A stretch of 64,000 bases of DNA, taken from a virus. Lineage: Duplodnaviria; Caudoviricetes. The notes below the pieces were generated by a model, which did not search any database, was not told the DNA's origin, and was given only the letters and a program-made list of their open reading frames with translations. The stretch covers positions 32,001 to 96,000 of the IMG/VR virus record IMGVR_UViG_3300033463_000010. One strand, given 5' to 3'. Below, in pieces: positions 24,961-61,592 of this stretch; position 1 is the stretch's first letter; the number at the start of each line of letters is the position of its first letter. The translations under genes were made by a program, and so were the position numbers.

Positions 24961-26004
24961 ATGCAGATTGCAGAAGACTATATTCCGTTTAAGTGTGAGT
25001 TCATTGACGACATTTCCCGTGTTGACGAATCCGCACAATCCGAAGTTGCTAAAAGTGGTGGCACCATTCTCGCCATTGTCAAGGGTCAGCATTTCTGCCC
25101 TGGCAAGGTAAGCCGTAACCACCGCCTTTATACTCCCGAACTTTGGGAAGAAGCAGGTAAGGACGAAGACGTGCAGCGTAAGTTGACCAACGGACAAATG
25201 TTCGGTCGTATCGGTCACGAAGCCGAAATTACCGACGAAGATATTGCCGACGGCAAGTTTAGCCACATTACCCGCAACATTGATTGGAAGACGGGTATCG
25301 CTGAATCTGTTATCTACAATACGGATATGGGTAAGACGCTTTACACTATCCTTCGTGCGGGCACTACTATGTTTGTCAGTTCCCGTGCCGATGGCGACTA
25401 CGAAGGTAAGGACGAAGACGGCAACGATATTCTTGACCCGAAGACCTACAAACTTGAACGCTTTGACTTTGTGCAGGACCCTGGGTTCCTGGACGCAAAG
25501 CCGAAGATGATTTCCGAAAGCAAGCAGAATGAAAAGATTGAAGAAACCGTCAAGGAACGTGTCGCAGAATCCCTGCTTTCGCTTGCAAAGGAACTTGGGG
25601 CACCCGTTGAACTTGACGGCAGCACCTACGTCGTAGAAAGCCTGGAAAAGAACACTGTTGAAATGACAGATTGTGACAAGGGCACAGGCGACACTTACAA
25701 GTTTGAAGACTTTACCGAAGTGACCGAAGACATTAAGCAGTCTATCGTGAAGTTCGTTGAAGGCTTGCAGGAAGAAGTGAAGCAGTCCGCAGACACTATC
25801 CGTGACTTGAAATTCGCTAACAAGAATGGCTTGAACGAAGCCTACGTGACCGAACGTCGTCGTGCAGGTGCTACTTACGAAGCGATTGAACGTGAGCAGC
25901 CCGAAACGCAGACCTTTAAGGTCCTGGAAGCAAAGGCACCCGCCCGTGAAGCCGAAGACAACGACGGGTCCTTGATTGGTTATATTCTCGGCAGCAAACG
26001 TTAA
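24961..26004 (+). CDS. Prohead maturation protease (T4 gp21-like)
   Basis: RNHRLY, FGRIGHE, FSHI, TDMGK, VSSRADG, FDFVQDPGF..A.P motifs. Confidence 0.9.
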   Translation: MQIAEDYIPFKCEFIDDISRVDESAQSEVAKSGGTILAIVKGQHFCPGKVSRNHRLYTPELWEEAGKDEDVQRKLTNGQMFGRIGHEAEITDEDIADGKFSHITRNIDWKTGIAESVIYNTDMGKTLYTILRAGTTMFVSSRADGDYEGKDEDGNDILDPKTYKLERFDFVQDPGFLDAKPKMISESKQNEKIEETVKERVAESLLSLAKELGAPVELDGSTYVVESLEKNTVEMTDCDKGTGDTYKFEDFTEVTEDIKQSIVKFVEGLQEEVKQSADTIRDLKFANKNGLNEAYVTERRRAGATYEAIEREQPETQTFKVLEAKAPAREAEDNDGSLIGYILGSKR

Positions 26005-26347: not shown

Positions 26348-26614
26348 ATGCCAAAGTTGAAGATTATGGTCCACGAAGCCAAGTCCGACCTTGAAAAGCA
26401 GATTACGAAAGAATGTGTCCGTCTTGGATTGGACCGCCTGGTTAATCGTGGCTATTCTTCACGGATAGTCCCGACTTACGGCAATTACATTGAAAAACAC
26501 AAGGATGAACCTGTTGAACAAATCGCAAAGTATATCTACGACACGGAACAGCGTGAGTGGTTCAAAATGCGTGGCGGTTTCAATATGTTCGGTCTTTTTG
26601 GCAACAGAGGTTAA
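26348..26614 (+). CDS. Leader-bearing protein (LKIMVHEA)
   Basis: Class I leader. Confidence 0.7.
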   Translation: MPKLKIMVHEAKSDLEKQITKECVRLGLDRLVNRGYSSRIVPTYGNYIEKHKDEPVEQIAKYIYDTEQREWFKMRGGFNMFGLFGNRG

Positions 26615-27245: not shown

Positions 27246-27635
27246 ATGGGCTTGAAGATTAAAATGCAAGAAGCGTCCAGGAATGACGAAATCCTGGGCT
27301 TGCTTTCGGAAAAGGGTTTTACCGTGGACCAGGAAGCAAGCGATAGGGAGGACCGCCTGGTAGCCTATAAGCAATATAAGGCTCACGGCTACTGCGTCGG
27401 GGATGTTACGTTAGTTGTCAAGTATGACGCATACGTGAACCGCAGCCTGTTTATGAACGTGCTGTCTAATAGTTATGCTAACATTAGACTTAAACGTTCC
27501 GATAGTATCTTTGAAACGTCTATCGTGGATAATCGGGATATGGTTAATCTTGAAGAAGCCCGTCGCTGTATCGGTAATGCCGAACGTGCGGTAAATATGT
27601 ATATTTCAGCATTAGAAACAATTTACGAGGTATAA
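27246..27635 (+). CDS. Leader-bearing protein (LKIKMQEA)
   Basis: Class I leader variant. Confidence 0.7.
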   Translation: MGLKIKMQEASRNDEILGLLSEKGFTVDQEASDREDRLVAYKQYKAHGYCVGDVTLVVKYDAYVNRSLFMNVLSNSYANIRLKRSDSIFETSIVDNRDMVNLEEARRCIGNAERAVNMYISALETIYEV

Positions 27636-27637
27636 CT

Positions 27638-28675
27638 ATGTTTAACTGCTCTATGCAAAAGAAGAAAGAAAGCCTTGCCAAGCAAAATGAATACAAGCGT
27701 GGCGAACTTGATTTTAGGGGTGGCTTTGACTTTAACGGTAAGCCGAAGAAGTCCGTTATTTCCAAGATTAGCAAAGCCCTTGATAAAGCGGGCATTTCCG
27801 CAGTCGTGGACCCGTCGGGGGAACGCTTGGAAGTTCCCTTTGGCGATGATGCTGTGTATATGACGGCTATGAGCCAAAGTTATGGTTCTAGCAAGTGCAG
27901 TTATGTCAATGTTCGCCAAAAGAGCGACCGTAGCACTGACGTGGGTGTTTATAACGTTGGGGATGCCGTGAGTGTCGTGCAGGAAATTACACAGGGGCTA
28001 GACGCTCCCAATGAATCCAAGAAATCCGAATCCGCAGCAGGTCGTTCGTTCTATGACGAATTTATTGCCGAACGTGCCCGTGATATTCTTGAAGAATACG
28101 ACGTGAACGAAGCCCAGGGCGGTATGTGCGATTATTGGTATAACATTGGCGACGGTGTTGAAGATATGGAGCGTGACGACCGCAGTGGCTTTTTCTCTTA
28201 TAACGATGGTGGTGTTCAAAAGACTTGGATGACTACCCCGTTTATGCTTGCGGGCGGTGGCTACCTTGACCCGAAGACGAAACCCGAATATGACCGCCTC
28301 CGTAAGAACTGCGAAGACGACTATCGTGAAGAATGCGAAAAGAATGGGGTTGAGTGCGATTTCAGTTCCGAAGAATACTATGAATTTGAAGACACCTGGT
28401 CCCAGGAAGGTCTTGAAATTTTCGCTTATGCGGAAATTATGCTTTATAGCCGTAATTCCGACCGTGACGAATATACGCTTATTGCCCGTATCAGCCGTAG
28501 TTTTGACTATACCTACGGACGTAACCCGCAGGACGATTTGAACATTGAAATGGATTTGACTTCGGAACAATTCACGAAGGAAAACGCAGACAAGTTCTTC
28601 GCTGCTGTTGAAGAAGCATTCGCCAACTATTCGTTTGACGATGGCGACAAGGAAATTAACGTTAAGGCAGATTAA
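27638..28675 (+). CDS. Leader-bearing polyprotein-like protein (CSMQKKKESL; NESKKSES linker)
   Basis: Class II leader; very acidic second domain. Confidence 0.7.
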   Translation: MFNCSMQKKKESLAKQNEYKRGELDFRGGFDFNGKPKKSVISKISKALDKAGISAVVDPSGERLEVPFGDDAVYMTAMSQSYGSSKCSYVNVRQKSDRSTDVGVYNVGDAVSVVQEITQGLDAPNESKKSESAAGRSFYDEFIAERARDILEEYDVNEAQGGMCDYWYNIGDGVEDMERDDRSGFFSYNDGGVQKTWMTTPFMLAGGGYLDPKTKPEYDRLRKNCEDDYREECEKNGVECDFSSEEYYEFEDTWSQEGLEIFAYAEIMLYSRNSDRDEYTLIARISRSFDYTYGRNPQDDLNIEMDLTSEQFTKENADKFFAAVEEAFANYSFDDGDKEINVKAD

Positions 28676-28699
28676 GTCTGCAAAGGAAAAGGTAAATCT

Positions 28700-29473
28700 A
28701 TGGCATACAAATGCTCTATGCAGAAGAAAAAGGAAAGCCTTAACACGAAGGCTGAATCCGCTAACTCCAACTATTATTTCAGTATATGGACTGAAAATTA
28801 TCCCAAAAATGGCAAAGAACCCACACGTTATATTAACGTGTATGAGCCTTCGTCTTGTAAGGGTTGGTATGACGTTACAAAGGAATATGACGACGCTTAC
28901 GAAGAAGAAATGGAACTCCGTAATGGTAATGTAAATTACACCTATATCGCCAAGAAAGTTATTGATAAAATTATTTCGGGTGCCATTAAGCCTTGTGATG
29001 ACCCGTATGACACTATCCCTAACTTTTCTAGGTGGTTCAAGGAATATCCGTTTAACATAAGTGAACACACCCAGGATTTCCTGGACGGGAAGTATGGTTC
29101 TCGCAGCGAATCCAAGAAGCACACTTGTTCTATGCAGAAGAAAAAAGAAAGTCTTGCTGCGAAGAAGTCCAAGAAGTGCGAAGGCTTTATGGATGACCTG
29201 CCGTATGACGCACCCGTAGCCATTGAAACCCTGTGTTCCGAAATTATGAGCCACACCGAAGAATTTACCATTGAAGACGCAGCCGTGGCTGAAATGTGCG
29301 GTAAGTGGTATATTCGTGATTACGCAAATGGTTCTACCGCAGCACAGAACGAAGACGAATTTGTTGACGAAATCCTTGCAGGTCTTTCGGGCAGTCCTTT
29401 GGACGGCTCCCCGTTCGGTGCAGCCGAAGCCGAAGAATACGCCAGGAAGATTTACAACGAAGTCGTTGCTTAA
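28700..29473 (+). CDS. Leader-bearing protein with two CSMQKKKESL copies
   Basis: Class II motif at the N-terminus and internally. Confidence 0.7.
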   Translation: MAYKCSMQKKKESLNTKAESANSNYYFSIWTENYPKNGKEPTRYINVYEPSSCKGWYDVTKEYDDAYEEEMELRNGNVNYTYIAKKVIDKIISGAIKPCDDPYDTIPNFSRWFKEYPFNISEHTQDFLDGKYGSRSESKKHTCSMQKKKESLAAKKSKKCEGFMDDLPYDAPVAIETLCSEIMSHTEEFTIEDAAVAEMCGKWYIRDYANGSTAAQNEDEFVDEILAGLSGSPLDGSPFGAAEAEEYARKIYNEVVA

Positions 29474-29496
29474 AGAAATCCTACGACAAAATCATC

Positions 29497-29526
29497 AAGG
29501 TGCCCCGATTGTTCGGGGCACTTTTT
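29497..29526 (+). terminator. Intrinsic terminator
   Basis: GGTGCCCCGA-ttgt-TCGGGGCACT-TTTT. Confidence 0.85.
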
Positions 29527-29576
29527 GTATGCCCATTTTCTTTCGTATAAATTAAATATAATAGATTACCTAATTT

Positions 29577-29621
29577 ATATAACAAATTACCTACAACTTA
29601 TAACTAGGTAATTTGTTATAT
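29577..29621. repeat. Perfect 17-bp inverted repeat of the promoter motif with 11-bp spacer
   Basis: ATATAACAAATTACCTA-N11-TAGGTAATTTGTTATAT. Confidence 0.9.
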
Positions 29622-29822
29622 TTGACATTTTTTGACATTTTATTCAAAACTTTTTCAAAATCGCACAAAAATTTTATTATATTCTGTTGTCAAAGGGAGG
29701 GCAATTTCCCTGCCAATACTTGTCGGCAATTCTTATTACTGACAAATTCCCTTGTAGGAGGGTGGCTTTCGTAGAGCCATCTCTAACTAACAAAAAACAA
29801 CCCTATCAAGGAGAGCATTATT

Positions 29823-30320
29823 ATGCTTAAATTCCGCAAGAAACTCCGTGAAGAAGACAGCATCGTGGAAGTTGGCGACGTTAAGTTGGATGCCAAGGAA
29901 ACCGAAGTTGTTTTCGCTGACGAAGAAAAGGACATCCAGGTTGTCGTTTCCCCCGACCCCGAAAACGAAAACTCTGTGACCGTCGCAGTTCTTACTAACT
30001 CCAAGGAAGACGTGGAAGAAGAAGAAGTTCTTGGTTCTGCTTCCGTTGAAGGTAGTGAAGATAAAGGTGCTGAAGAATCCCGCAAGGCTGCTCGTCGTGA
30101 GGCATTCCGTAAGCGTCTTGAAGCCCGTCGTTCTGCAAAGAAGCAGACCGCACCCGCCCGCAACGAGGCTCGTGCCGAAGCGTTCCGCAAGCGACTTGAA
30201 GCCCGTCGTGCTGCAAAGAAAGCAGAAGCCAAAACTTCTACTTCCACTGCCGAAGCCCGTAAGAAGGCAATCGGTGAAGCACGTGCGAAGTTCCGTTCCA
30301 AAATTGGCAAGAAAGCCTAA
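29823..30320 (+). CDS. Prohead scaffold/core protein
   Basis: Immediately upstream of capsid; acidic N-half, basic helical repeat EAFRKRLEARR x2. Confidence 0.6.
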   Translation: MLKFRKKLREEDSIVEVGDVKLDAKETEVVFADEEKDIQVVVSPDPENENSVTVAVLTNSKEDVEEEEVLGSASVEGSEDKGAEESRKAARREAFRKRLEARRSAKKQTAPARNEARAEAFRKRLEARRAAKKAEAKTSTSTAEARKKAIGEARAKFRSKIGKKA

Positions 30321-30338
30321 CCCAAAGGAGAAGACATT

Positions 30339-31988
30339 ATGAAGACTTCCGTTGAAGAAATGTCTAATCAGAAATACAACCGCCTCGTAGAATCCTACGA
30401 AGCCCGCTATGGCAAGCAGTTTGAAGCCCTTGCCAAGTCCCCGTCGTTCAAGGGCACCTTGTCCAAGAACGCTATGTTCAACCTTGGTCAGCAGATGGAC
30501 AACTACAAGCGTTACGAAAGTTTCGTGAACGAAAATTCCTCGGCTTCTAGCCTTGGTGTGTTGCCCCGTGTTGCTCTTGACCTTATTTCTGCTACCTACG
30601 CACTTTCTATTGCTCCGCAGTTGGCAAGTGTGCAGACGCTTGAAGAATCCCAGGGTCTTATCTACTTCAAGAAGACCTTTACCCACGGCTATCCGCTGAC
30701 TGCCCAGGAAGGACTTCCGTCCCTGCCCGAAGACAGGTGGATGGGTGCCGACGGTAAGTTTGAAGGCGACAAGACTTTCGCAGGTGCCTGGAAGAAGTGG
30801 CTTGACACCCGTGGTCGTCCCGTTGCAGGTCCCGACACCGAACTGACTGCCGAACAACTCGCAGCCAAGAACTTTGACGCTATCACTTTCAACGCCCTCA
30901 AGGGTTGGCAGGCTTCCCCGACGCAGTATATGAGCGAACGTCAGTTTGCTATCGCTGCCGACGGTTCCGCTACCATTAAGTATGGCGTGGGCAACCTCCG
31001 TTGGAACACCCCGATTAACGTCCGTCTTGTTGACAAGAACGGCAACGTTGAAGACGTGGTTGGTGTTTGCGGTGGTCCTGGTCAGTTGCCGACTTTCTAT
31101 GGTAAGGTTTCCGTGACCGCTGCTGCTGTTGGTCCCGACCTTGTTCTTACCATTCCGACGGGCTACCAGGGTGGCGTGACTTATGACGTTGACTTTGAAA
31201 AGGCTCCCGACGTTCCTGCTATTGAATACGCTCTTGACAACAAGGTTGTCAGTGCCGAAATCATTGGCTTGAAGGAAATGATGGGCACGTTCAAGTCTTT
31301 CCAATTCAACAAGCGTTTTGGTAAGGCTGCGTCCGACGAAGTTCTTGCTGACCTTACGGGTCATATGGCTATGGCTGAATCCGAAAAGATTCTTGCTGCC
31401 TATGTCCGTTGTGCTAACAAGTGGAAGCCGATTACCTGGAATCTCAACAAGACCGCAGGTATCAGCGAATTTGAACACCGTCAGTCTTTCCTGTATGCTA
31501 TCCAGGCTGCTTCTGCTGCTATCGGTAGCCGTGCAGGTAAGGGTCACGCTAACAAGATTGTTGCGGGCTACGTCGCTTGTCAGTATATTGCGTCCCTCCC
31601 TGGTTTCCGTCTTGCTCCGCAGACCAACCTTGTGGGTCCGCACGTGTATGGCACTCTTGAAAACGAAGGTATCACGGTTATCCGTTCCAACACCATCGTT
31701 GCCCCGAACGAAGTTATCTGTGCTTACAGCAGCGATAACAGCCCGTTTGAAGCACCTGTTGTGTGTGCAACGTATATGCCTGTGTTCCTCACCGACACTA
31801 TGCCTGTTGCCGACAACCCGTTCCAAACGCAGCGAGCAATCGCTTCTTGGAAGGCTATTGAACCTGTGGTTGCCGAATTTGTGCAGCGTATCGTCATCAC
31901 AAATGATGCCGAAGCACCTGCCGACGTGAACGTGTTCCTTACTACCACCCCGAACGGTGGCAGCGGTAGCGGTTCTAGCAACGGCTAA
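30339..31988 (+). CDS. Major capsid protein (T4 gp23-like)
   Basis: LDLI..TY..SIA..LASVQTL...QGLIY; GHANKIVAG; GTL; V.ATYMPV pattern; strong codon bias. Confidence 0.9.
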   Translation: MKTSVEEMSNQKYNRLVESYEARYGKQFEALAKSPSFKGTLSKNAMFNLGQQMDNYKRYESFVNENSSASSLGVLPRVALDLISATYALSIAPQLASVQTLEESQGLIYFKKTFTHGYPLTAQEGLPSLPEDRWMGADGKFEGDKTFAGAWKKWLDTRGRPVAGPDTELTAEQLAAKNFDAITFNALKGWQASPTQYMSERQFAIAADGSATIKYGVGNLRWNTPINVRLVDKNGNVEDVVGVCGGPGQLPTFYGKVSVTAAAVGPDLVLTIPTGYQGGVTYDVDFEKAPDVPAIEYALDNKVVSAEIIGLKEMMGTFKSFQFNKRFGKAASDEVLADLTGHMAMAESEKILAAYVRCANKWKPITWNLNKTAGISEFEHRQSFLYAIQAASAAIGSRAGKGHANKIVAGYVACQYIASLPGFRLAPQTNLVGPHVYGTLENEGITVIRSNTIVAPNEVICAYSSDNSPFEAPVVCATYMPVFLTDTMPVADNPFQTQRAIASWKAIEPVVAEFVQRIVITNDAEAPADVNVFLTTTPNGGSGSGSSNG

Positions 31989-32010
31989 TTGCTTAACTCC
32001 CTGTTGAGTG

Positions 32011-32043
32011 AAGACACCCCTGCGTAAAGCGGGGGTGTTTTTT
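32011..32043 (+). terminator. Intrinsic terminator after the capsid gene
   Basis: GACACCCC.GC...GCGGGGGTGTT-TTTT. Confidence 0.8.
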
Positions 32044-32116
32044 ATAGGGTGGTTGTCCGAAGTTGAAAAAATTTTATTATTTTTATTGACGATAAACTTC
32101 AAATGGGGTAATGCTT

Positions 32117-32248
32117 ATGGCAGAAGAAACCACCGCACCCGATTCTTATTCTTACCTGGCTTACATTTTGGCTATGTATGCCGACGAAGAACAGCGTGAC
32201 GAAACCCTGTGGACGGGAAACTTCACAGGCGACGTGTTGCCGTATTAG
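32117..32248 (+). CDS. Small hypothetical protein (43 aa, not in the ORF track)
   Basis: MAEETTAPDSYSYLAYILAMYADEEQRDETLWTGNFTGDVLPY; typical codon usage. Confidence 0.5.
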   Translation: MAEETTAPDSYSYLAYILAMYADEEQRDETLWTGNFTGDVLPY

Positions 32249-32281
32249 CGTCTAACAATTTTCCAAACAAGGGACACCCGT

Positions 32282-33289
32282 ATGTCTAACAAGCATTTCA
32301 AGATAGTTGTTAAAGAAGCAAAGAAGAATGAAAGTAAGTCCGACGGTGAACGTGCCGTGGACGACTATGATACCCTTATTGACGGTCTAAAAGAATTGGG
32401 ATTTGAGCCGTCGTCCAATGTTCGTAACGGTAAGATTTATCCGTATAGAACAAGGTTCACTGCGACCAAAGACGGCATTAAGTATGGCTTTACTCTTAAT
32501 GAAGACCTCACAGGCGAATATCTTGAATCCATTGAAGTCGTTGGTGGAAGCATTTACACGGGCGACCCAAATGACAAGGACGCTAGGGTGTTTAAGTCCG
32601 TCGGTGAAGTCCTTGACGCTTTGAAGCAGGTTGACGGTAAGAAGTCCGAGGCTATGGATATGTCTAGGGCGAAGCAGATTGTAATGGGTGACACTCGCCA
32701 CAACCCTAAAACGGTTGCTGAGGAAATTGCGTGGTCTGCGTGGGTTGAAAGCGACGGGCACCCTAAAGCATTATTGCGTAAGGCTGCTAGGGATTACTAT
32801 AATAGCGGGCTATTGGCTTCTGCTGAAAGGGCACGTTATTTGTTGGACACCTATACAGACGAAATGCGTGAACTTTATAAGGAATTTACGTCGTCGGTTG
32901 AACCTGCTGAAGTTGCGTCCACAGGTGAAGTTATCCCGTGGAGTTCTTTTGAAGATATGTCTTCTAAAAATGAAGCTGACGCAGAAGCCTTTATTCAGTG
33001 GATTACTGAAAATGTTGCACGTAAGTTGGTTCGCTATGCTAGTGAGTCAATGAAGTCCGAAAGCCTTTCGCTCAAACAGAAAGAACTTAAAGATATGGCA
33101 CGTTATGGCGAAGCCGAAGACATTACTACCATATCCGACGCAGAAGCAAAGGAACTTCGCAAGAAGGGCGTTGAAACGGTGGGTGTTAGCCGTGGGACCT
33201 ACGGAATGAACGGTGCCTTGCTCCGTGACAAGGACGGCAATAAATACGTGATTACCGCCCGCAGCTCTAACCTGTTCTACTTTGTATAA
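32282..33289 (+). CDS. Leader-bearing three-domain polyprotein-like protein
   Basis: FKIVVKEAKKNES leader; KKSEA and SESMKSES linkers. Confidence 0.7.
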   Translation: MSNKHFKIVVKEAKKNESKSDGERAVDDYDTLIDGLKELGFEPSSNVRNGKIYPYRTRFTATKDGIKYGFTLNEDLTGEYLESIEVVGGSIYTGDPNDKDARVFKSVGEVLDALKQVDGKKSEAMDMSRAKQIVMGDTRHNPKTVAEEIAWSAWVESDGHPKALLRKAARDYYNSGLLASAERARYLLDTYTDEMRELYKEFTSSVEPAEVASTGEVIPWSSFEDMSSKNEADAEAFIQWITENVARKLVRYASESMKSESLSLKQKELKDMARYGEAEDITTISDAEAKELRKKGVETVGVSRGTYGMNGALLRDKDGNKYVITARSSNLFYFV

Positions 33290-33315
33290 AATTTTTTAAA
33301 TAAAGGAAAACTCTT

Positions 33316-34650
33316 ATGAATAAAACATTCACCTGCTCTATGCAGAAAAAGAAAGAAAGCTTTGCGAAGAAGTCCGAAGCAAAGACTTGCGAAGCCACGT
33401 TTAAGCAGGGCGTGGACGACTTTATCAGTTGTGCCCCGTCGGGTGGTTGGTCCGACTATTGGGCTATGCAGCAGGATTGGGAAGCGTTTAAGGACGGTCT
33501 TTGCCGTGACGGTGTGATTACACAGAAGCAGGCAGATTCTTGGAGTAACCCTTGTACCCCCGAAACTTTTGCTCGCTGGCAGAAGCGTAACGGCTTGGTT
33601 AGCCGTGGTTACGAATCCAAGAAGTCCGAAGACACCTATGACCGTCCTGTGACCTTGTATGCTTCTACTCGTTATGATGACGCAGAAGAAGCACAGAAGT
33701 TCCTTGATAGCATTAGCGGTGGTGAAGTAAAGGTGTCCAAGGAACGCAATGGTGATACCTTGTCTGTGAGCATTGAAGGTGACGATGATGCTATTGACAC
33801 ATTCCTTGCAGTCTATAAGGATAACTATGATACCCTTGAAAAAGATTGCGATGCAGATGTTAATGGTTGGACGGACCCCGTGGATTTGAAGTATTATACG
33901 GTACAGGGTCGTAAGGAACTCACAGGTGAATCCGAAAGCAAGCAGAACGAAAAGAGTAAGGCTGTCTGTGCTGTTTGTGGGGAACCTACAGATGACCCTG
34001 TTTTTGACTATGACCATACTTTCTGTAAGGATTGTTACGGTGACGGTGGGGACGTTTGGAAGGGTGATAAGGCGAATGCTAATGCTAAATTTGTTGTTGG
34101 GACAATGATTAGTCTTGACGGTGTTAAGCAATATATTCGGGAATTTAGACCTCGTACTTTCGTAGCTCAAAACGTAGACACAGGTAAGGAAGTTACTTTG
34201 CCCCGCTCTAGTCTTAATCGTGCTTTCGCTTTATATGACCCTAGAAAGTCGGATTACGACGACAGGGGTAATTTAAAAAACCGTGAATCAAATAAAAAAG
34301 GCGAATCCAAGAAGTCCGAAGGCATTGGCGACCGAATCAAGATGGGCATAGACTACAATATGTTTATGCGTATGTGTGGTTCCGCAGCCTACCTTGATGA
34401 CAATGAAGACTATTGGGATGCACTGTGGGAATACTACTCCGAAATGGGCGAAATTGAAGACGCTTGCGAGTTCTTTGACAACTTGTTCCAATACACCGCT
34501 TGGTGCGATGCAGACGAGGTGTACGATGAATACTTGGACGATAAGTTCAAGGACGAGTCCAAGAGCAAGGAAGAATGTATTGAGGCTGCTGTTGACGCAG
34601 GCGACCTTGACGTTTTCAAGACGGACAAGGGCTATCTTGTAATTCAGTAA
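33316..34650 (+). CDS. Leader-bearing four-module polyprotein-like protein
   Basis: CSMQKKKESF leader; YESKKSED, ESESKQNE, GESKKSEG linkers; CxxC..CxxC module. Confidence 0.75.
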   Translation: MNKTFTCSMQKKKESFAKKSEAKTCEATFKQGVDDFISCAPSGGWSDYWAMQQDWEAFKDGLCRDGVITQKQADSWSNPCTPETFARWQKRNGLVSRGYESKKSEDTYDRPVTLYASTRYDDAEEAQKFLDSISGGEVKVSKERNGDTLSVSIEGDDDAIDTFLAVYKDNYDTLEKDCDADVNGWTDPVDLKYYTVQGRKELTGESESKQNEKSKAVCAVCGEPTDDPVFDYDHTFCKDCYGDGGDVWKGDKANANAKFVVGTMISLDGVKQYIREFRPRTFVAQNVDTGKEVTLPRSSLNRAFALYDPRKSDYDDRGNLKNRESNKKGESKKSEGIGDRIKMGIDYNMFMRMCGSAAYLDDNEDYWDALWEYYSEMGEIEDACEFFDNLFQYTAWCDADEVYDEYLDDKFKDESKSKEECIEAAVDAGDLDVFKTDKGYLVIQ

Positions 34651-34766: not shown

Positions 34767-35969
34767 CTAACTTACAGCAACATTCGTCGCTGATGGTTTC
34801 GGGCATTCTCGGTTTTGAAGCCGAGCATTGTTTAAGACTTCGGCAGGTCCCCCGCCTAGTGTCTTCTTAACTCCAAGATACAGAATGTTCCGTGCAGCGT
34901 TTACGTCCCTGTCGTGTTCGGCATTACATACAGGGCATACCCACCGCTTCACGCCTAGCACGACTTCGGGGTTTACGTTCCCGCACACATTACAAGTCTT
35001 GCTTGTATATTGTGCGGGGACTTTGACCAGGTTCGTCTTGTAGGACAGGTATTGCCGAAGCAACCCGAACCCCTGGTCACTGACAACTTTCCCGTGTTCT
35101 TCTTCGGATGACATCTTCTGTAAATTTATGTCTTCCACGAACACGTATTGGTATCTGTCAGCCAGGTCACGGCTTACCTTGTGCAGCCAATCCCTGCGTT
35201 GGTTGACTACCTTTTCGTGCAGCCGTGCAACTTTGGACTTGGCACGGTAATACCTCTTGGACTGCACGTCCTTGCCCTTTACGAACCTGCGGGATTGGAC
35301 CTGTTGGTATTTCTCCAACTGCCGTTCTTTCCTTGTCAAGAAGCGAGGGCACTTGACTTTCGTGCCGTCGCTCAAAGTGAGGAACGAATCGTCGGAGCAG
35401 TTCCAATCTATCCCGACCGCCTTTCCGTTCTGTATTTTAGTTTGTTCTTCTTTAAGTTCTACGCAAATCTTGACATACCATTTCCCGCTTGCAGACCGCT
35501 TGAACGTTATGTTCTTCCACTTGCCCTTGCAGAACTGCGATGATGCGTGGATAGGTATGTAGCCTAATTTTCGTGTGACGTATAAACCTTTTTTTGAAAG
35601 ATACGCTGAATTATTCTGTATGTGATACCGAAACGATACTTTTTCGTTTCGTTTACATTTATATGTCGGTTGGTGTGAAAATGTAGAAGGTTTGTTGCTT
35701 TTTAATGATTTGTAGAAATTAGAATACGCCCCACGTATATCCATCCAAGTTTGTGTTAGTGGTATGGTATCTATTTCTTTAACCCATTCAAGTGCTTCGG
35801 GTTTAAATTTTGTAAATGTCGGTTTGTAACCCTCTATAAGAATTTTGTGATTTTCGTTTTTATTTTTAACAATAATGTTGTAGTATAATCGGCATAGACC
35901 TAGTGTCTTGTTAAAAATAGACACTTGTTCTTTAGTAGGATAGATTCTATATTCGTATGCCTTAAACAT
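34767..35969 (-). CDS. tnpB: TnpB RNA-guided endonuclease, IS200/IS605 type (tnpB-2)
   Basis: KAYEYRIYPT, GIDWN, VEDINL, CNVCG/CPVC, DRDVNAARNI; end GATAGTTCAA at 34731; promoter TTGACG-17-TATATT at 36028-36000. Confidence 0.92.
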   Translation of the reverse strand: MFKAYEYRIYPTKEQVSIFNKTLGLCRLYYNIIVKNKNENHKILIEGYKPTFTKFKPEALEWVKEIDTIPLTQTWMDIRGAYSNFYKSLKSNKPSTFSHQPTYKCKRNEKVSFRYHIQNNSAYLSKKGLYVTRKLGYIPIHASSQFCKGKWKNITFKRSASGKWYVKICVELKEEQTKIQNGKAVGIDWNCSDDSFLTLSDGTKVKCPRFLTRKERQLEKYQQVQSRRFVKGKDVQSKRYYRAKSKVARLHEKVVNQRRDWLHKVSRDLADRYQYVFVEDINLQKMSSEEEHGKVVSDQGFGLLRQYLSYKTNLVKVPAQYTSKTCNVCGNVNPEVVLGVKRWVCPVCNAEHDRDVNAARNILYLGVKKTLGGGPAEVLNNARLQNRECPKPSATNVAVS

Positions 35970-37689: not shown

Positions 37690-39195
37690 ATGTCTTTGAA
37701 AATCAAAACACATAAGTTTGAAAGCCGTGTAGCTCCCGCTGCACAGCGTCGTCCGTTTGGTCGTATGGCTGAATCCAAAAAGTCCGAAGCTACAAGTTTC
37801 GGTGCGGGAATGTCTAAACGCACGGACCTGTCCAAAATGCGTAATTTGGGTGAAGTCATAGACGTTCTTGAAGAACACAAAAAACTTATGGAAAATAAGG
37901 CAAAGGATTTGTCGCAAAGCAAGGAAGACTTGCAGGCTGCGATTAAGTCCCTTAACGAATTTTCCAAACACGTCCTGTTCTTGAAGCAGCAGTCCGTAAA
38001 GGGTATCAAGGACGCACTCACGTTCAACAAGTCCCCCGAAGTCAAGGCTGCTGCCGATATTGAAAAGCACTTGAAGAATGCTCTTAAAATCCTTTACTCC
38101 GATTATGAGAACATTCCCGACGTTACTCAACTGCTGACAGTTGTTGACAGTCGGTATGCTACCCGTGGTGACAAGGTTGTGACCGCCTGGGTTGACAATG
38201 CGACCCGTGCTATTGAAGTGGACGCAAAGACGATTAAGGACAGCATCGCTGCGGGCGATATGTCCGAAGACGACGTTGTGAAACTTGTGACGGTTACTTA
38301 TGCTACCCACGGTGTCAAGAACAAGGACACCGTTGAAAAGGTAACGCCTGTCCTTGAACGTATGAACGCCTTGCTTGCTTCGGCTCCGAAGATTGAAGAA
38401 GCGGTCATTGACCCGAAGGAATTTAAGGAACTCCGTGACCTTGTGGAACAGATTGTTAAGGAAGCGTCCGAACCGACGCTTACTGTCAAGACTGCTATCA
38501 CTACGCTTTCAAAGGGCGAACTCGCAACCGTCCCGTCCGAAGCGTTTGTGTCCGAGGGTCTGCTTGACAAACTCAAAGACCTTGTGGCTTCTCTCAAGGA
38601 CAAGATTTCGTCCCTGTGGAACTCGTTTACTTCCCTGTTCTTCAACCTGGAAGACGAAGCCCTTGAATCGGCTGAAACGTTTGCCGAAGTTGAAGAAGGC
38701 TTTGCCATTATGGGCATTGTCGTTGAATCCTACGTTGCAAAGAGTGTTCCGCTCGGCAAGCAGTTTGAAGTCCTTACGAAGTCCGTGCTTCACTGCTGCG
38801 ATAAACTTGTCAAGGACGCTTCCCTTGCGGGCGAATTTGACGACGAAGTGATTTACGCAGAAGAAGCCGTCAATAATGCCGTTGAGTCGTTCCAGGCTCT
38901 CGGTGAAGCCTGCAAGACTTTGAAGAACGCATTGTCGTATCACAAAAACGAAGACAATATGAACGTTATCGGTATTCTTGCGGACGCTATCACGCAGATT
39001 GTGAACGACGACAATGGCAGTGCCGATACGGAAGGTGGCGACGACTCCGAAGACGACGAAAATTCTGTAATCCGTGACGTTGAAAAGGAATATAGCCCCG
39101 CAGGTGGCGAGGGCGGTGAAGAAGGTCCCGAAGCGAACGGTGGCGAGAACGAAGCCCCGAACCCCGCTGAAATGGGCGAACCCGAAACGTTCTAG
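37690..39195 (+). CDS. Leader-bearing helical protein, putative prohead core/inner-body protein
   Basis: MSLKIKTHKFES, MAESKKSEA; coiled-coil rich. Confidence 0.65.
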   Translation: MSLKIKTHKFESRVAPAAQRRPFGRMAESKKSEATSFGAGMSKRTDLSKMRNLGEVIDVLEEHKKLMENKAKDLSQSKEDLQAAIKSLNEFSKHVLFLKQQSVKGIKDALTFNKSPEVKAAADIEKHLKNALKILYSDYENIPDVTQLLTVVDSRYATRGDKVVTAWVDNATRAIEVDAKTIKDSIAAGDMSEDDVVKLVTVTYATHGVKNKDTVEKVTPVLERMNALLASAPKIEEAVIDPKEFKELRDLVEQIVKEASEPTLTVKTAITTLSKGELATVPSEAFVSEGLLDKLKDLVASLKDKISSLWNSFTSLFFNLEDEALESAETFAEVEEGFAIMGIVVESYVAKSVPLGKQFEVLTKSVLHCCDKLVKDASLAGEFDDEVIYAEEAVNNAVESFQALGEACKTLKNALSYHKNEDNMNVIGILADAITQIVNDDNGSADTEGGDDSEDDENSVIRDVEKEYSPAGGEGGEEGPEANGGENEAPNPAEMGEPETF

Positions 39196-60982: not shown

Positions 60983-61116
60983 GTAGTCAAGTGTTTAAGC
61001 CTGCGGGTGACTTCGCTAGTGTAGGCACCCTTGTCCACCTGCCTAGCGGACATACCCCGTATAGCACACTACCTTACGCAACGCCCCTGCGGACTAACAC
61101 ACCGCAGGGGTATTTT
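60983..61116 (+). ncRNA. Candidate structured small RNA with terminator
   Basis: TATATT upstream; CGCTAG/CTAGCG stem; terminator CCCCTGCGG/CCGCAGGGG-TATTTT. Confidence 0.3.
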
Positions 61117-61136
61117 AATTATTTTACAATTTGCTA

Positions 61137-61165
61137 TTGACAACTATCGGGTAATTTGTTATATT
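61137..61165 (+). promoter_or_regulatory. Repeated phage promoter
   Basis: TTGACA-17-TATATT with GGTAATTTGT. Confidence 0.85.
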
Positions 61166-61199: not shown

Positions 61200-61394
61200 A
61201 TGAACCCACACGAACACGCCTTTGAATTTTGCCTGTATATCCAACAGTGCGGACGTGCCGTCCCTGCACGTTTCTTTACAGTAAAGGGCGAAGACTCCGA
61301 AGACGCTGCTATCACTGCCGAAGAAAAGGGGCAGCGTATCTGTAAGCGTAACAAGTGGAACTACGGGGGCGTGGAATGCTGTGGTTTGGCGTAG
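61200..61394 (+). CDS. Small early protein
   Basis: ACCGAGGA RBS. Confidence 0.65.
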   Translation: MNPHEHAFEFCLYIQQCGRAVPARFFTVKGEDSEDAAITAEEKGQRICKRNKWNYGGVECCGLA

Positions 61395-61457: not shown

Positions 61458-61592
61458 ATGCAGAAGTGTTCTATGCAGAAGAAGATTGAAAGCCTTCGCA
61501 AGAAAAGCGAAACGGTTGATGACGAAGGGCTGACCTTTTCGTATGATGGCGTGAACGTTATGGTCCACGAAGGTCATTACACCCGTAAGTAG
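61458..61592 (+). CDS. 44-aa ORF carrying a class II leader (not in the ORF track)
   Basis: GGAG RBS; MQKCSMQKKIESLRKKSETVDDEG... Confidence 0.6.
   Translation: MQKCSMQKKIESLRKKSETVDDEGLTFSYDGVNVMVHEGHYTRK

Follow-up and report, generated by a model that had tools for sequence, protein, structure and literature searches.

A recurrent 15-residue module on unrelated proteins of large uncultured phages is a candidate capsid-loading leader and protease junction

We analysed a window of 64,000 nucleotides (nt), bases 32001-96000 of the 213,231-bp IMG/VR virus record IMGVR_UViG_3300033463_000010 (G000; CheckV completeness 97%), in which a T4-type head module surrounds three genes, named here by their start positions 27638, 28700 and 33316, whose products open with the peptide motif CSMQKK(K/I)ES(L/F), the class-2 tag. 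Five copies of this motif lie in the window, all on the + strand and in frame, at every position reported by an earlier sequence-only reading (27638, 28700, about 29125, 33316 and 61458), and the DNA pattern of the tag gave four exact matches and one with two mismatches, against none in 100 shuffles. The start codon of tagged genes is the first ATG, preceded by a Shine-Dalgarno-like sequence, and the N-terminal motif begins at residue 4-7; the ATG within CSMQ was rejected as the true start, since it has no ribosome site and the upstream ATG has one. Across the whole genome, a sixth, internal copy was found at G000:212866 (residue 140), as well as a degenerate seventh, CSMQKAME, in G000:117049-117957 (- strand). 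The copies in the window are as follows.

27638..27691, + strand: class-2 leader of gene 27638 (open reading frame (ORF) 27638-28675), MFN followed by CSMQKKKESLAKQNE; tag copy at 27647, residue 4
28700..28756, + strand: class-2 leader of gene 28700 (ORF 28700-29473), MAYK followed by CSMQKKKESLNTKAE; tag copy at 28712, residue 5
29108..29182, + strand: internal junction module between cargo Z and cargo W of gene 28700, ESKKHT followed by CSMQKKKESLAAKKSKKCE; tag copy at 29126, residue 143
33316..33378, + strand: class-2 leader of gene 33316 (ORF 33316-34650), MNKTFT followed by CSMQKKKESFAKKSE; tag copy at 33334, residue 7
61458..61592, + strand: leader-only ORF of 44 amino acids (aa), MQK followed by CSMQKKIESLRKKSE and 26 residues; tag copy at 61467, residue 4, CSMQKKIESL

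Codon usage was compared across 27 non-redundant tag copies from G000, from two complete relatives, G001 (IMGVR_UViG_3300028914_000054, 215,686 bp) and G003 (IMGVR_UViG_3300031998_000006, 215,310 bp), and from several fragments. TGC and TGT are used equally often for the Cys (13 copies each), Lys is encoded by either AAA or AAG, and Leu appears as CTT, CTC or CTG. The first Ser retains TCT in 22 of the 27 copies, while the Ser after the Glu uses AGY in 16 and TCN in 10; as one Ser is thereby preserved across two codon families, selection acts on the protein. Outside the stretch of ~26-45 nt that encodes the peptide, the copies do not align with one another, and within it the differences are synonymous. 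The tag had been described as a reused nucleotide cassette, an appearance that arises because the peptide has low codon degeneracy. The conservation of the DNA is what the peptide imposes, and the class-2 tag is a peptide signal, not a DNA cassette.

The extent of the conserved unit is given by a census, in which a profile of 15 tagged N-termini (A3) was compared with 1.84 billion cluster representatives (E <= 0.001). This returned 103 proteins, one per 50%-identity cluster, with 129 distinct copies. Over these copies, position 1 is C in 127, position 2 S in 129, position 3 M in 129, position 4 Q in 102, position 5 K in 129, position 6 K in 126, position 7 K in 80 and I in 49, position 8 E in 129, position 9 S in 123 and position 10 L or F in 124. 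A second basic-x-Glu follows the first Glu in 120 of the 129 copies, at a spacing of exactly 7 residues in 90 of the 120; for 91 of the 120, the residue behind this second Glu is A, S, G or D. With two Glu at a set spacing, the unit is a fixed 15-mer bounded by two Glu, with the consensus CSMQKK(K/I)ES(L/F)-x-KK-x-E. It has neither a hydrophobic stretch nor a lipobox, as read from the sequence. Natural replacements of the Cys by Ser or Ala exist, although they are rare; the Cys is therefore not strictly essential, and thiol-dependent chemistry at this residue is unlikely to be essential. Among the 114 copies that match the strict motif, 61 are N-terminal (2-8 residues from the start codon), 51 internal and 2 C-terminal. 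Internal copies are stereotyped, reading (S/K)E(A/S)KK(H/P)T-CSMQKKKESLAKKxE, and E(S/A)(K/R) or KK precedes 46 of 60 internal class-2 modules. Because internal modules are this frequent and uniform, polyproteins are a regular state and not an accident.

The segments attached to the module, referred to here as cargo, do not resemble one another. Among the 13 cargo segments of G000 there is no pairwise BLASTP similarity (best E-value 0.21), which bears out the earlier claim that the downstream domains are unrelated and speaks against ordinary paralogy among them. Thus a short leader at residues 4-21 of three window genes and one mini-ORF precedes unrelated cargo. When the census proteins were cut at modules and junctions, the resulting 180 segments fell into 66 BLASTP families, 53 of which have a member directly behind a class-2 module; as a lower bound, at least 53 BLASTP-unrelated families thus occur behind it. 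Searches of 20 tagged or cargo proteins against Pfam and PHROGs gave no family above threshold, and gene 33316 showed only weak matches, to a zinc-ribbon stretch and two PHROGs of unknown function. Two of the window genes divide as follows.

27692..28012, + strand: cargo cassette X (residues 19-125 of gene 27638)
28013..28030, + strand: ESKKSE junction between cargo X and cargo Y
28031..28675, + strand: cargo Y, 214 aa, acidic, isoelectric point (pI) 4.1
33379..34650, + strand: four-part cargo polyprotein of gene 33316, split at ESKKSE (33613-33630), SKQNE (33937-33951) and ESKKSE (34303-34320)

Each part of the 33316 polyprotein occurs in a different protein of G001, G003 or L075, the last a near-identical phage. 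An AlphaFold2 model of cargo Y was obtained with a predicted local distance difference test (pLDDT) score of 88.9; Foldseek searches with this fold against PDB and BFVD gave nothing at E <= 0.001, and a wide VIA structure search found no clear structural relative (top Z 6.8, in a range called common). The single-sequence model of gene 28700 was poor (pLDDT 51), and the lack of structure of both modules in that model carries no evidential weight. Across 27692-29473 and 33379-34650, the cargo is largely acidic (9 of 13 segments with pI 4.05-4.86, seven of them 4.05-4.45) and the flanking modules are Lys-rich. Such acidity may recall DNA-mimic anti-restriction proteins.

The internal tag copy of gene 28700 had been read as a fusion of two formerly separate tagged genes, and the relatives agree with this. 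In G003, cargo W, which forms the C-terminal domain of 28700, is encoded on its own by a 122-aa gene (38014-38382) whose tag is N-terminal; in G001 it follows an internal tag. Similarly, the copy at G000:212866 is internal, while its counterpart in G001 (160528) is N-terminal. Together, these two cases support fusion (or fission). At G000:212866 and at G003:50084, a ribosome-site-like string and an ATG still stand just upstream of the copy. The sixth tagged gene itself (G000:C1:212449-213231) runs off the end of the record and resumes at its start (85-549), with 98% identity over 57 residues; since the record ends match across this gene, the record is terminally redundant or circularly permuted.

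For a sister junction without the CSMQ core, ES(K/R)KxE, composition predicts 0.16 sites, and three genomes contain 9, 14 and 15; the ESKKxE form is enriched about 55-fold. Nearly all of these sites lie in head-module polyproteins or in proteins led by the class-2 module or by a further leader, class 1, of the form KIxVHE(S/A); one lies at residue 187 of the head protease. Class-1 and class-2 leaders coexist in every complete genome examined. When cargo Y sequences are aligned, they become conserved directly behind the last Glu, irrespective of the leader: CSMQKKIESFKKNE followed by SAAGR, KMKIRVHEHKKQE followed by SAAGR, and ESKKSE followed by SAAGR. This is the pattern that would be expected if the last Glu were a maturation cut. 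Proteases of the T4 type cut after Glu (PMC5694885, PMC3012670, PMC12373910), and those of SPN3US and phiKZ shed their C-terminus by self-cleavage at a site of this kind (PMC5694885). Of the 129 copies of the module, 120 end in Glu, a putative cleavage site, with a basic residue at P3 in place of the L or I of T4.

Comparison of related genomes revealed that cargo is switched exactly at the tag, with breakpoints precise to the nucleotide. Cargo Y carries a class-2 leader directly in P0001 (96% identical), P0002, P0003 and P0014, and a class-1 leader in P0005-P0008; in the window, P0004, P0012 and P0013 it follows another first domain and a junction. On its tree, the leader class must have changed at least twice. 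Cassette X stands between two class-2 modules in the polyproteins P0009-P0011. A block including this cassette (window 27643 to 28023) is shared with the contig L074 (5456-5836) at 94% nucleotide identity, in contrast to neighbouring genes, which are only 74-78% identical. Homology to L074 stops at 28023 and homology to L073 and L075 starts at 28027; that to L073 ends at 28741, the end of the tag core in the 28700 leader. L075 is 94-97% identical to the window in the protease and capsid regions and has the 33316 leader (MNKTFTCSMQKKKES-AKKSE), but other cargo stands behind it, the 96.6% shared block ending at 33378; the first domain of 33316 is found in L075 in a different polyprotein, behind another class-2 module. 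Over the cargo genes, all nine breakpoints (27643, 28023, 28027, 28741, 32649, 33052, 33378, 33618 and 34302) fall within 4 nt of a module or junction, compared with 9.5% of coding positions (nominal P ~6e-10, for a motif list partly fixed post hoc). A module can be the left edge of a shared block in one comparison and the right edge in another, as would be expected from crossover within shared sequence. Breakpoints at linkers would also be expected from selection against broken domains. The suggestion that the shared DNA serves as a recombination handle for cargo swapping is consistent with these positions, which crossover and selection both fit. Turnover extends to class-1 cargo: the class-1 genes at window 26348-26614 and 27246-27635 are missing from the near-identical L075, so this cargo also changes between close relatives.

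The three tagged genes of the head module lie among the following features, two of them directly upstream of the scaffold gene and one past the capsid gene.

24961..26004, + strand: head maturation protease, T4 gp21-like (phrog_207, E 3.6e-22)
Four small class-1 genes, with the leader KIxVHE(S/A)
29823..30320, + strand: scaffold-like protein, placed between the cargo and capsid genes and conserved in relatives
30339..31988, + strand: major capsid protein, gp23-like (Pfam Gp23, E 2.7e-10, 40.6 bits against a cutoff of 24.4; phrog_138)
32282: class-1 gene, between the capsid gene and 33316

A gp21-type prohead protease, a scaffold and a gp23-type capsid protein, the setting of T4-type capsid targeting sequences (CTS), are thus all encoded. 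The scaffold was assigned from position and composition only, and had no family match in Pfam or PHROGs. In the protease of the window, a junction-like ISESKQNE closes the catalytic domain (25519-25533), and its orthologues in G001 and G003 carry ESKKKE at residue 187, at the end of this domain, the place where the proteases of SPN3US and phiKZ cleave themselves (PMC5694885). A predicted complex between protease residues 1-200 (A2) and a tagged N-terminus (A3) scored 0.00 against a mark of 0.32, which speaks neither for nor against an interaction.

In T4, the CTS is a leader of 10-20 residues on unrelated internal proteins (PMC5694885, PMC3012670, PMC12373910). By analogy, we think it probable, with moderate confidence, that the class-2 module is a CTS-like loading leader and protease cut module for head-internal cargo, which also splits polyproteins, in a clade of ~215-kb uncultured phages with T4-type head morphogenesis. 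The basic module, N-terminal or between domains, would recruit the precursor to the scaffold core during its assembly, in the manner of the T4 CTS. The activated gp21-like protease would then cut after the module Glu residues, between KK(K/I)E and S and between KK-x-E and A, S, G or D, so that the module would be removed as short basic peptides and the mostly acidic cargo domains freed, with one gene giving rise to several virion proteins. The same short conserved coding stretch would serve as the exchange point of cargo cassettes between phages. That cargo would enter the capsid, be cleaved and reach the host by injection is inferred here by analogy with T4 (PMC3012670, PMC12373910) and with the giant phages (PMC5694885). 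What was observed directly is the motif with its positions and context, the conservation of its peptide sequence, the diversity of the cargo and the mosaic breakpoints.

A number of results weigh against this proposal. The protease matches Pfam Peptidase_S77 only at E 1.4e-4 (21.9 bits, under the cutoff of 27), a phmmer search with it among PDB sequences found no relative, and the nearest cultured phages (the Rhizobium RHph_TM30 group) share only ~30% identity in the capsid protein. The presumed cut motif, basic-basic-x-Glu, differs from the L/I-x-E of T4 and the S/A/G-x-E of giant phages, and cleavage at the module Glu residues would be an extrapolation from these. Most cargo is acidic, unlike the basic internal proteins of T4. 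Neither leader class stands at the N-terminus of some head-module polyproteins, so that an N-terminal address is not obligatory. The 44-aa tagged ORF, placed behind a sigma-70-type promoter, fits poorly with a late head protein.

Other explanations account for parts of the same data. The most substantial, which we rate as unlikely although it deserves serious consideration, is that the module is a protease-cleavable spacer only, one flavour of the ESKKxE junction with no addressing role, and that loading proceeds via class-1 leaders, cargo domains or the polyprotein context. The 51 internal, stereotyped copies among the 114 would be explained in this way, as would the construction of module and junction alike from KK-x-E units, the polyproteins without any N-terminal leader, and the interchange of class 1 and class 2 on cargo Y. 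However, 61 copies stand 2-8 residues from the start, where there is nothing to separate and a cut would be pointless unless the leader acts first; C-S-M is (near-)invariant over 129 copies, beyond the three-residue specificity known for T4-type proteases; and both classes coexist in all complete genomes examined. The sequence-only reading had proposed a second addressing signal, possibly for a different head location, stoichiometry or ejection order. The genomic context fits an address. The module is also not only a tag, since 51 of the 114 copies are stereotyped internal junctions of polyproteins. The class-specific part found no support, as cargo Y has class 1, class 2 or plain ESKKxE in relatives. 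This interchange argues that either leader class may suffice, for cargo Y at least; the stable coexistence of both classes in every genome leaves room for a difference. A broader scheme, which we regard as doubtful, would have plug-and-play cargo carried by two leader classes with distinct packaging fates (copy number, head position, ejection order), the leader DNA as the preferred crossover site for capsid-delivered, probably anti-defence domains, and the leader-only mini-ORFs as empty sockets.

It is very unlikely that the primary role lies at the level of nucleic acid, as a recombination site, a ribosome-binding-like or translational element or a small-RNA target, with the peptide incidental. 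The DNA pattern is strongly non-random and purine-rich, with a Shine-Dalgarno-like AAGGAA in some copies, and mosaic breakpoints fall on the tag; yet all copies lie in frame, in sense orientation and inside an ORF, third positions vary freely, one Ser uses both AGY and TCN, the AAGGA string is missing from several copies, and selection against broken domains would also put breakpoints at domain borders. An address elsewhere than the capsid, such as a membrane, a secretion route or an intracellular phage compartment, would suit the tagged genes that lie far from the head module (61458; G001 105221, 187316 and 202073) and the sigma-70-type promoter ahead of 61458. Against this, the module is not a signal peptide, given that it lacks a hydrophobic stretch and a lipobox; it co-occurs with the ESKKxE junction, itself present in the head protease; the densest tag cluster lies between the protease and capsid genes; and T4 internal protein and Alt genes are likewise scattered (PMC12373910). 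We judge such an address highly improbable. That these are ordinary paralogues with conserved N-termini, the motif having no signal function, is scarcely credible: the copies all descend from one ancestral sequence (the first Ser being TCT in 22 of 27), but the cargo is unrelated by BLASTP, with at least 53 families behind the module, and the module is retained while all around it changes.

The proposed loading leader and cut module is most like the CTS of T4 IPI-III and Alt (Mullaney and Black 1996, cited in PMC5694885; PMC3012670; PMC12373910). Both are short leaders on unrelated, fast-evolving small proteins, in the company of a gp21-type protease, a scaffold core and a gp23-type capsid protein; both end in Glu, behind which proteases of this type cleave; and in both, cargo genes vary between close relatives. 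The phages described here differ in that two leader classes coexist, in the fixed length of 15 residues, the 7-residue spacing of the two Glu and the basic KK-x-E that replaces L/I-x-E, in the use of the module as often as an internal junction as an N-terminal leader, and in the mostly acidic cargo; the class-2 system is, moreover, known from sequence alone. The class-2 consensus bears no resemblance to the T4 CTS, MKTYQEFIAE, and the module is an analogue, not a homologue. The giant phages phiKZ, 201phi2-1 and SPN3US likewise have a large genome, many head-internal proteins and a homologous protease that cleaves behind Glu; their propeptides contain several cut sites, and the protease domain closes, at its C-terminal end, with a motif resembling a cut site (PMC5694885, PMC10052503). 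Their propeptides are long (~80-130 residues) and share no short module, and neither a standard interdomain junction nor cassette exchange is described for them in PMC5694885 and PMC10052503. In the PeSL cassettes, mobile regulatory elements through which modules are shuffled in T4-type genomes (PMC2839356, PMC4122927), a short conserved sequence also flanks variable genes and bears the mosaic boundaries of close relatives. PeSLs, however, are non-coding, a promoter and stem-loop between genes, whereas the class-2 module is coding, conserved as a peptide and placed inside reading frames, so that domains and not genes are exchanged.

If the leader-and-cut-module reading is correct, the 15-residue string would be a search key for the capsid-carried, probably injected proteins of a whole clade of uncultured large phages. 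The census families (at least 53 unrelated, those scanned having no Pfam match) would then be natural candidates for early-acting counter-defence factors. Exchange of cassettes at the level of domains, at a coding junction, goes further than the shuffling of whole genes known from T4-type phages. The module would also provide a second, compact leader with which to attempt the packaging of foreign proteins into phage heads.

Upstream of the 44-aa ORF, a near-consensus sigma-70-type promoter comes after a strong hairpin that has a U-tract (window 61085-61165). The promoter itself (61137-61165; TTGACA, a 17-nt spacer and TATATT, 11/12, with TG) stands upstream of a mini-operon formed by a 64-aa ORF (61200-61394) and the 44-aa leader-only ORF. 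Sigma-70-type promoters are not in excess in the head module. The string TATATTT was considered as a shared late-promoter motif upstream of tagged genes and dropped, since many unrelated genes have it upstream as well. To check whether the 44-aa ORF is an exon cut off by an intron, its surroundings and those of its G003 counterpart were scanned with Rfam, which gave nothing meaningful. Leader-only ORFs of 29-50 aa with almost no cargo recur in relatives (G003:C1:89288-89377; P0039, P0052, P0053, P0071, P0090, P0095, P0103 and P0106); P0095 resembles the 44-aa window ORF, which also has a class-1-like VMVHEG near its end. Such ORFs may be leftovers of cassette turnover.

Further features were seen in and around the head module. 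A DNA search of GenBank phages with 8 kb of the region gave no match. The scaffold-like protein has an acidic, strand-prone N-terminal half followed by two basic-helix repeats, EAFRKRLEARR(S/A)AKK (window 30079-30220), and its counterparts in G001 and G003 have a third copy of this repeat near the N-terminus. Directly after gene 33316, inside the head module, lies a TnpB gene of the IS605 family (window 34767-35969, - strand; OrfB_IS605 E 1.2e-20, Cas12f1-like TNB, HTH_OrfB_IS605), and the close relative L075 carries such a gene at a different place.

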